Origin: Escherichia coli
GTDB taxonomy: Bacteria; Pseudomonadota; Gammaproteobacteria; Enterobacterales; Enterobacteriaceae
Length of the DNA stretch: 64,000 bases
Direction: 5' to 3' (one strand)
Assembly (NCBI RefSeq): GCF_002854065.1
Contig: NZ_CP024147.1
Numbering within the stretch: position 1 is the stretch's first letter; each line of letters starts with the position of its first letter. Below, in pieces: positions 26,428 through 27,081 of the stretch. Position numbers and translations under genes: made by a program. The notes beneath the pieces are model-generated. The model was not told the DNA's origin, made no database searches, and saw only the letters and a list, made by a program, of their open reading frames with translations.

Positions 26428-26517
26428 TTACTTCAGGTATTTCAGAACAGCATCAAGCAGTTGCAGTGCTGCAACAATGAGTTTGAGGATAAGAATGGCG
26501 ATATCCACCAGGCTCAT
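26428..26517 (-). CDS. tisB: SOS-induced type I toxin TisB (29 aa)
   Basis: Minus-strand translation MSLVDIAILILKLIVAALQLLDAVLKYLK; lies between emrD and ivbL. Confidence 0.85.
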   Translation of the reverse strand: MSLVDIAILILKLIVAALQLLDAVLKYLK

Positions 26518-26753
26518 ACGCGTCTCCTGTGGTTCAGGAGCACTGCCAGCTGACGTACCTTTCCGCTGCCTGTTGCCAGCTGTTGTGCACGCGGTATCTC
26601 AAGGAGAAACGTTGTGCTTGTTGACATAACACAGTGTGCTCACGCGGGGTTAAGGCGCTGACGGCACCACCCGTTTCAGCCAGGACTTAGTGCGCCGGGT
26701 AACGATGCGGCCCCCGCATAACACATTGCGTACAGTGATATTATAGAAGTTTA

Positions 26754-26769
26754 CTGTATAAATAAACAG
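26754..26769. promoter_or_regulatory. LexA box (SOS box) CTGTATAAATAAACAG controlling tisAB / istR-2
   Basis: Perfect CTGT-N8-ACAG palindrome with AT-rich spacer. Confidence 0.8.
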
Positions 26770-26877
26770 TAATATTTGGACAAAACGCAAACTGTGATCG
26801 ATACTCAACTATGCACTAAATACGTCAAAATTCGTGCCGAAATTGCGCGTTCTGCGCGGAACACGTATACTTTCAGT

Positions 26878-26953
26878 GTTGACATAATACAGTGTGCTTT
26901 GCGGTTACCAGCCGCAGGCGGCTGACGAAACCTCGCTCCGGCGGGGTTTTTTG
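26878..26953 (+). ncRNA. istR: IstR-1-like antitoxin sRNA (antisense regulator of tisB)
   Basis: A 22-nt stretch GTTGACATAATACAGTGTGCT repeats the segment at 26619-26640 in the tisAB leader (1 mismatch), giving complementarity between the oppositely transcribed RNAs; terminator-like GC stem plus T-run at about 26931-26955. Confidence 0.6.
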
Positions 26954-27081
26954 TTACCTGCAATTCAGTGCAAAACGTGATCAACCCCTCAATTTTCCCT
27001 TGCTGAAAAATTTTCCATTGTCTCCCCTGTAAAGCTGTGCTTGTATAAATATTGTTAAACACAAAACCAACAAGGTCCCCA

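Follow-up and report, generated by a model that had tools for sequence, protein, structure and literature searches.

Locus identity and genomic setting

We asked whether the interval between emrD/ysdE and ivbL-ilvBN in a 64-kb stretch of E. coli DNA (hereafter the window, meaning the entire stretch analysed) holds a complete tisB/istR-1 type I toxin-antitoxin module or a remnant of one. The original prediction, drawn from the letters alone, had claimed an intact and fully recognisable tisB/istR locus here. TisB protein models, the Rfam istR model, synteny, and alignment to K-12 all agree with that claim. The features collected in Table 1 almost certainly make up a complete chromosomal tisB/istR-1 module in its canonical E. 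coli form, and no sequence features contradicting this reading were seen in the window. The locus is already known and ordinary. Its presence, integrity and position are established in this analysis, as are the conservation of its sequence elements and its pairing potential.

The gene order emrD-ysdE-tisB-(istR)-ivbL-ilvBN matched that of K-12 MG1655 in a synteny comparison, and the module occupies the chromosomal position between emrD and ivbL-ilvBN that is expected of the tisB/istR-1 system. Two E. coli chromosomes contain the 621 bp from 26380 to 27000 without a single difference (100% identity), and RefSeq places tisB at the same spot in such identical strains. When searched against 5,426 complete E. 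coli genomes, this segment matched about 4,359 at ≥ 95% identity with tisB annotated beneath the match, and the match was chromosomal in every case. Alignment to the K-12 tisAB-istR locus (b4618 / b4616), which had been proposed as a check, revealed the same genes in the same order and orientation with the same neighbours. The two sequences share 616 of 621 bases, and the five differences spare both repeat copies, the LexA box, the -10 boxes, the promoters, and the tisB Shine-Dalgarno sequence.

The module is easily overlooked in an open reading frame listing. As the original prediction stated, only spurious frames are listed here: those of at least 60 amino acids (123, 70, and 165 aa) overlap the locus but have the wrong frame or strand. 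Toxin genes of 29 codons and small RNAs escape length-filtered listings, and dedicated models are needed to find them. Weak Rfam matches to STnc310, P6, and Termite-leu were dismissed, as they scored below the gathering thresholds and fell on terminator hairpins. The hairpins in question are the tisB terminator and one just 3' of ivbL, which we take to be its attenuator.

Table 1. Coordinates of the tisB/istR-1 locus in the window and its differences from K-12 MG1655
Feature	Position	Strand	Basis and remarks
tisB/istR-1 locus	26381-26952		Between emrD/ysdE and ivbL-ilvBN
tisAB intrinsic terminator	26381-26408	-	12-bp GC-rich stem, 4-nt loop, T-rich tail; terminator scan
Difference from K-12	26395		tisB terminator loop; no effect expected
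tisB coding sequence, 29-aa membrane toxin, N2S form	26428-26517 (stop included)	-	Open reading frame listing, family models, RefSeq
Difference from K-12	26513		tisB codon 2, AAC to AGC (N2S)
tisA open reading frame, 37 aa	26514-26627	-	AUG within IstR-1 target
tisB Shine-Dalgarno sequence AGGAGA	26523-26528	-	5 nt 5' of AUG; read from sequence; as in K-12
IstR-1 target (ribosome standby region), repeat copy 1	26619-26640	-	Repeat search; as in K-12
tisAB leader, 5' part	26641-26733	-	Fold; near-invariant across genera
tisAB -10 box TATAAT	26740-26745	-	Read from sequence; listed in PMC11264685
LexA operator (SOS box) TACTGTATAAATAAACAGTA	26752-26771	.	Pattern scan; as in K-12
istR-2 promoter TGGACA, 17-nt spacer, GATACT	26777-26805	+	Promoter scan; hexamers listed in PMC11264685
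IstR-2, 140-nt SOS-induced long form	26813-26952	+	K-12 RefSeq coordinates transferred by alignment
istR-1 -10 box TATACT	26866-26871	+	Read from sequence; listed in PMC11264685
Antisense segment at IstR-1 5' end, repeat copy 2	26877-26898	+	Repeat search; as in K-12
IstR-1 antitoxin sRNA, ~75 nt	26878-26952	+	Rfam, K-12 alignment
Difference from K-12	26921		IstR stem, U-A to U·G; pairing kept
IstR intrinsic terminator, common to IstR-1 and IstR-2	26927-26952	+	Rfam, fold, terminator scan
Difference from K-12	26957		3' of IstR terminator; outside locus
Difference from K-12	26970		3' of IstR terminator; outside locus

The TisB toxin

A TisB toxin of 29 amino acids had been predicted on the minus strand, and the corresponding reading frame was found there with the translation MSLVDIAILILKLIVAALQLLDAVLKYLK. 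This product exceeded the cutoffs of all three family models applied to it. It scored 69.9 bits (cutoff 53) with NF011340 and 61.5 bits (cutoff 38) with TIGR04459, the two NCBIfam equivalog models for TisB, and 37.6 bits (cutoff 25) with Pfam PF13939. Published work describes TisB as a single amphipathic transmembrane helix bearing a polar stripe (PMC8309996). The stripe residues D5, K12, Q19, D22, and K26 are all present in the window's TisB, and they are invariant in the related loci from which a TisB reading frame was recovered. The ribosome binding site AGGAGA was reported in 100% of E. coli tis/istR loci in a published conservation table (PMC11264685).

The substitution N2S is the sole coding difference from K-12. 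The original prediction had staked itself on the toxin frame and the repeat following canonical TisB and IstR-1 at pairing-critical positions; the repeat is that of K-12, and the toxin frame departs from it at residue 2 only, outside the pairing region. A 57-nt probe centred on the N2S polymorphism was found at 100% identity in 3,289 of the 4,358 genomes with the locus. According to PMC11264685, Ser2 is the consensus residue in E. coli (85%) and confers greater toxicity when induction is low.

The IstR RNAs and their pairing with the tisAB leader

The Rfam istR model (RF01400) aligned end to end (model positions 1-130 of 130) with 26823-26952 on the plus strand, scoring 149.5 bits against a cutoff of 45, which places the sequence within the family. 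IstR-1 is annotated as 73 nt in K-12 RefSeq, which corresponds to a start at 26880 in the window, and the published length of 75 nt corresponds to 26878. In its predicted fold, IstR-1 has two hairpins preceded by 12 free nt at the 5' end. The Rfam consensus structure and the minimum-energy fold agree in pairing the antisense segment when it is part of IstR-2. Such pairing would fit the published observation that IstR-2 does not repress tisB (PMC11264685).

The original prediction had also pointed to a 22-nt direct repeat and equated it with complementarity between the tisAB leader and IstR-1. The repeat is real and contains a single differing base, with 21 of 22 positions identical between TGTTGACATAACACAGTGTGCT (26619-26640) and TGTTGACATAATACAGTGTGCT (26877-26898), although the second copy had been placed one base too far right, at 26878-26899. 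A comparable repeat arose in 0 of 30 shuffles of the surrounding 800-nt region, and we estimate that about 1e-6 repeats of such quality would be expected by chance. The argument from divergent transcription is sound as well: since tisAB and istR are transcribed in opposite directions (leftward and rightward, respectively), two plus-strand copies in direct orientation yield RNAs that are complementary to each other. The C/T difference places U26888 of IstR opposite a G in the mRNA, giving a G·U wobble and hence a duplex without mismatch. This duplex comprises 22 bp, of which 21 are Watson-Crick pairs and one is G·U, with a predicted energy of -35.1 kcal/mol.

With a start at 26878, 21 of the 22 nt of the repeat copy lie inside IstR-1, and the published complementarity is 21 nt (PMC4147584). 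The target begins ~100 nt 5' of the tisB AUG (26517). The locus thus has the divergent genes and the ~21-nt complementarity between the 5' end of the sRNA and the tisAB 5' UTR that characterise the system. We also considered a 70-nt IstR-1/tisAB duplex of -78 kcal/mol, in which the whole sRNA would be a diverged duplicate of the leader, and rejected it on the basis of shuffle controls. Beyond nucleotide 21, the duplex energy of IstR-1 was -49.7 kcal/mol compared to -45.8 ± 3.8 kcal/mol in shuffles, and the DNA similarity beyond the 22-nt core had a score of 17 that was reached by 57 of 500 shuffles.

Promoters, LexA operator, and leader structure

The LexA operator lies within the tisAB promoter region, spanning its -35 region and spacer, and stops 5 nt short of the istR-2 -35 box. 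It had been described as perfect. That description suits the 16-mer CTGTATAAATAAACAG at 26754-26769, with its CTGT...ACAG arms and a spacer made up entirely of A/T, but not the full 20-mer, which shares 18 of 20 positions with the LexA palindrome TACTG(TA)5CAGTA. No other site in the window comes within three mismatches of this palindrome, and none of 100 shuffles contained any match. The tisAB LexA box has been reported to have the lowest heterology index among LexA-controlled genes (PMC9040746).

A consensus promoter scan recovered the istR-2 promoter alone. The -10 boxes of tisAB and istR-1 were located by eye and from published hexamers (PMC11264685), and no convincing -35 hexamer was seen for either of these two promoters. 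From the geometry of the -10 box and promoter, we infer that tisAB transcription starts (+1) at ~26733 and that the processed +42 end falls near 26692. With +1 at this position the IstR-1 target would correspond to about +94 to +115, so that the published RNase III cut at +106 would fall inside it and it would overlap the single-stranded standby region mapped to +85 to +111 (PMC6690012). The putative +1 RNA, in its minimum-energy fold, has its 5' end paired with the target region. The target has a mean unpaired probability of 0.38 in the +1 RNA and 0.47 in the +42 RNA, a gain so small that folding only weakly reproduces the structural switch. The switch itself was mapped experimentally in K-12 (PMC6690012), and the window sequence is identical there.

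Proposed regulation

The copy in the window presumably works as in K-12. SOS induction, processing, RNase III cleavage, toxicity, and persistence are carried over here from publications on the near-identical K-12 locus. LexA bound to the operator would repress both the leftward tisAB and the rightward istR-2 promoters, consistent with its published repression of tisAB and very low heterology index (PMC9040746, PMC8145889). Upon DNA damage, LexA would be cleaved and tisAB mRNA would be made. The primary transcript would be untranslatable, with its first 41 nt paired with the standby region, and processing to +42 would expose a single-stranded standby site ~100 nt 5' of the structured tisB ribosome binding site. 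Ribosomal 30S subunits would then load at the standby site via ribosomal protein S1 and slide to the tisB start codon.

Constitutively expressed IstR-1 would oppose this process by pairing its free 5' tail (26878-26898) with the standby site (26640 down to 26619), thereby blocking standby binding and triggering RNase III cleavage to an inert +106 mRNA. The inert +1 and translatable +42 mRNAs, S1-dependent standby binding, the IstR-1 block, and cleavage by RNase III to +106 are documented in K-12 (PMC6690012, PMC4147584). Once tisAB mRNA exceeds IstR-1, TisB would enter the inner membrane and dissipate the proton motive force, ATP would fall, and the cell would pass into a drug-tolerant dormant state. 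TisB has been shown to depolarise the inner membrane and to promote persisters (PMC2826370, PMC8309996). The locus is a textbook case of antisense-RNA control of ribosome standby and of SOS-linked persister formation.

Conservation in other genera

Relatives of the locus were gathered by an exact scan with the degenerate DNA pattern TTGACATAAYACAGYGYGC using one genome per species, which returned 26 stretches. Three of these (Ruminococcus, Bacillota, and an uncultured MAG) were set aside as single chance matches lacking a TisB reading frame. The remaining 23 came from Escherichia, Citrobacter, Salmonella enterica subspecies arizonae and diarizonae, and Intestinirhabdus. Both repeat copies were present in 20 loci spanning four genera, at a separation of 237-257 nt as compared to 258 nt in the window. 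A recognisable TisB reading frame was recovered from 19 of the 20, the DNA of the other (L012) ending before tisB. All 17 loci scanned with Rfam had a full-length istR match of 62-145 bits (L009, L011, and L029 were outside the scan). The 5' leader from the target to the promoter is almost invariant across genera.

Pairing was maintained across these loci. Over the 21 IstR-1 positions, five duplexes are perfect, ten have one G·U, and four have one internal A·C; the remaining locus, from Citrobacter, combines a compensatory double change from U-A to C-G with a terminal mismatch. Hence, no duplex has more than one non-Watson-Crick position, with a G·U in ten loci, a mismatch in five, and neither in five. 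The A·C mismatch occurs at IstR-1 position 7 in Citrobacter spp. and Intestinirhabdus alba (L007, L018, L021, and L028). Duplexes with this mismatch have a predicted energy of -31.0 kcal/mol compared to -35.4 kcal/mol for perfectly paired loci. In Escherichia, a derived C-to-U change on the IstR side has replaced a G-C pair with G·U; a different wobble, likewise on the IstR side, is found in several Citrobacter and Salmonella loci.

An 11-nt insertion at 26807-26817, directly 3' of the istR-2 -10 box, was observed in Escherichia loci only. This insertion would account for the 140-nt length of E. coli IstR-2 relative to the Rfam model of 130 nt, whose match starts at 26823.

Alternative readings of the locus

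Could the repeat have arisen by chance, or survive from a duplication of neighbouring DNA, and contribute nothing to pairing of the two RNAs? A small number of other short stretches resemble each other in the tisAB leader and IstR, and these might hint at an old duplication. However, similarity beyond the core was not significant in the shuffle controls described above, where the energy of the remaining IstR-1 duplex also fell within the shuffle range, and the core repeat itself had no counterpart in shuffled sequence. Both copies have been retained in four genera, with 15 of 20 loci free of any duplex mismatch; the IstR-side C-to-U changes produce G·U wobbles only, and one locus has the compensatory double change. 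Moreover, pairing, standby blocking, and RNase III cleavage were demonstrated for identical K-12 sequences (PMC6690012, PMC4147584). We regard a repeat unconnected to pairing as vanishingly improbable. That the locus is a decayed, inactive remnant is extremely unlikely, even though loss of tisB/istR clearly occurs within E. coli, where about 20% of complete genomes are without the locus and some copies are interrupted, for example with IS insertions nearby in H38 and H43. In the window, the toxin frame, Shine-Dalgarno sequence, standby site, LexA box, three -10 boxes, and the two terminators show no damage and match K-12 apart from N2S, a single loop base, and a stem position at which pairing is kept. 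TisB with N2S was toxic in experiment (PMC11264685).

A further alternative concerns tisA, which might encode a genuine leader peptide and be translationally coupled to tisB in the manner of mok and hok, with IstR-1 acting by blocking the tisA start. The arrangement is suggestive in that the tisA AUG (26627 down to 26625) lies inside the IstR-1 target and its stop codon adjoins the tisB start codon, and the 37-aa frame is retained in 99.6% of E. coli (PMC11264685). Against this, the frame is lost between genera. The change behind the internal A·C mismatch converts the tisA AUG to ACG in all four loci that carry it, while loci of the Citrobacter freundii group have a 33-nt deletion and frame changes that result in unrelated 46-aa products. 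Product lengths range from 12 to 66 aa across related loci (L004-L029), and no protein family match was found for tisA among the NCBIfam and Pfam models. This lack of conservation between genera speaks against both a functional protein gene and a mok-like coupling frame. The literature likewise treats tisA as an upstream reading frame only and attributes tisB translation to the standby site rather than to tisA coupling (PMC11264685, PMC6690012). Translational coupling through tisA is therefore very unlikely, and tisA is probably not a functional protein gene. The preferred reading remains that of a complete tisB/istR-1 module in which IstR-1 would act on the standby site.

Comparison with other type I systems

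The E. coli systems dinQ/agrB, zor/orz, and shoB/ohsC resemble tisB/istR in several respects. Each pairs a small hydrophobic toxin with a divergent sRNA that has short complementarity to the long 5' UTR of the toxin mRNA, rather than to its ribosome binding site, and each has a processed, translatable form of the mRNA; dinQ is also LexA-controlled, as is tisAB (PMC4147584, PMC3567139). The toxin and sRNA sequences of these systems are nevertheless unrelated to those in the window, which matches the TisB and istR models specifically. The hok/sok system shares with tisB/istR an antisense RNA acting over a small membrane toxin, an inert primary transcript that requires processing, and duplex cleavage by RNase III. 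In contrast, Sok is cis-encoded, fully overlapping, and acts via the translated leader frame mok, whereas the IstR gene is beside the toxin gene, divergent and without overlap, the upstream frame tisA is unconserved, and repression proceeds by blocking the standby site.

Variation within E. coli

The intact locus places this strain among the ~80% of E. coli that carry tisB/istR, with the common N2S allele of TisB, and its significance beyond correct annotation is slight. About 1,070 of the 5,426 complete genomes (~20%) have no tisB/istR yet possess emrD/ysdE and ivbL/ilvB. Published values for absence are 15% with no match and 3% interrupted (PMC11264685). In strain FP4, ~150 bp of unrelated DNA, sharply bounded at either end, stands in place of the region corresponding to ~26266-27003 of the window (~740 bp), and ysdE and ivbL are intact. 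We found no description of the junctions of genomes lacking the module in PMC11264685.

These patterns invite broader interpretation. One possibility is that the pairing-site pattern across genera reflects tuning of antitoxin strength rather than neutral drift, and that together with N2S it would lower the threshold for TisB-dependent dormancy relative to K-12; we consider this conjecture unlikely. In a similar vein, the module might be gained and lost as a discrete cassette, which is how the clean exchange of ~740 bp in a fifth of E. coli genomes could be read.

The sequences flanking the module also vary. The spacer from ysdE to the tisB terminator contains a ~100-bp segment (26266-26365) with the inverted repeat CCCTCTCCC...GGGTGAGGGG. 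This segment was found in only 1,509 of 5,426 genomes, with one copy in each, and we accordingly rejected the notion that it belongs to a multi-copy repeat family. K-12 has a different, shorter REP-like sequence in its spacer beyond the tisB terminator. On the left, ysdE (26178-26252, +) starts with ATA in the window as compared to ATG in K-12 and FP4; it is still annotated by RefSeq in the identical strain 100416, and an in-frame TTG lies one codon 5'. On the right, IvbL (27082-27180, +), the ilvBN leader peptide, begins MTTSMF in the window and MTTSML in K-12 (L6F), and its run of valine codons, the would-be attenuation signal, is the same as in K-12.
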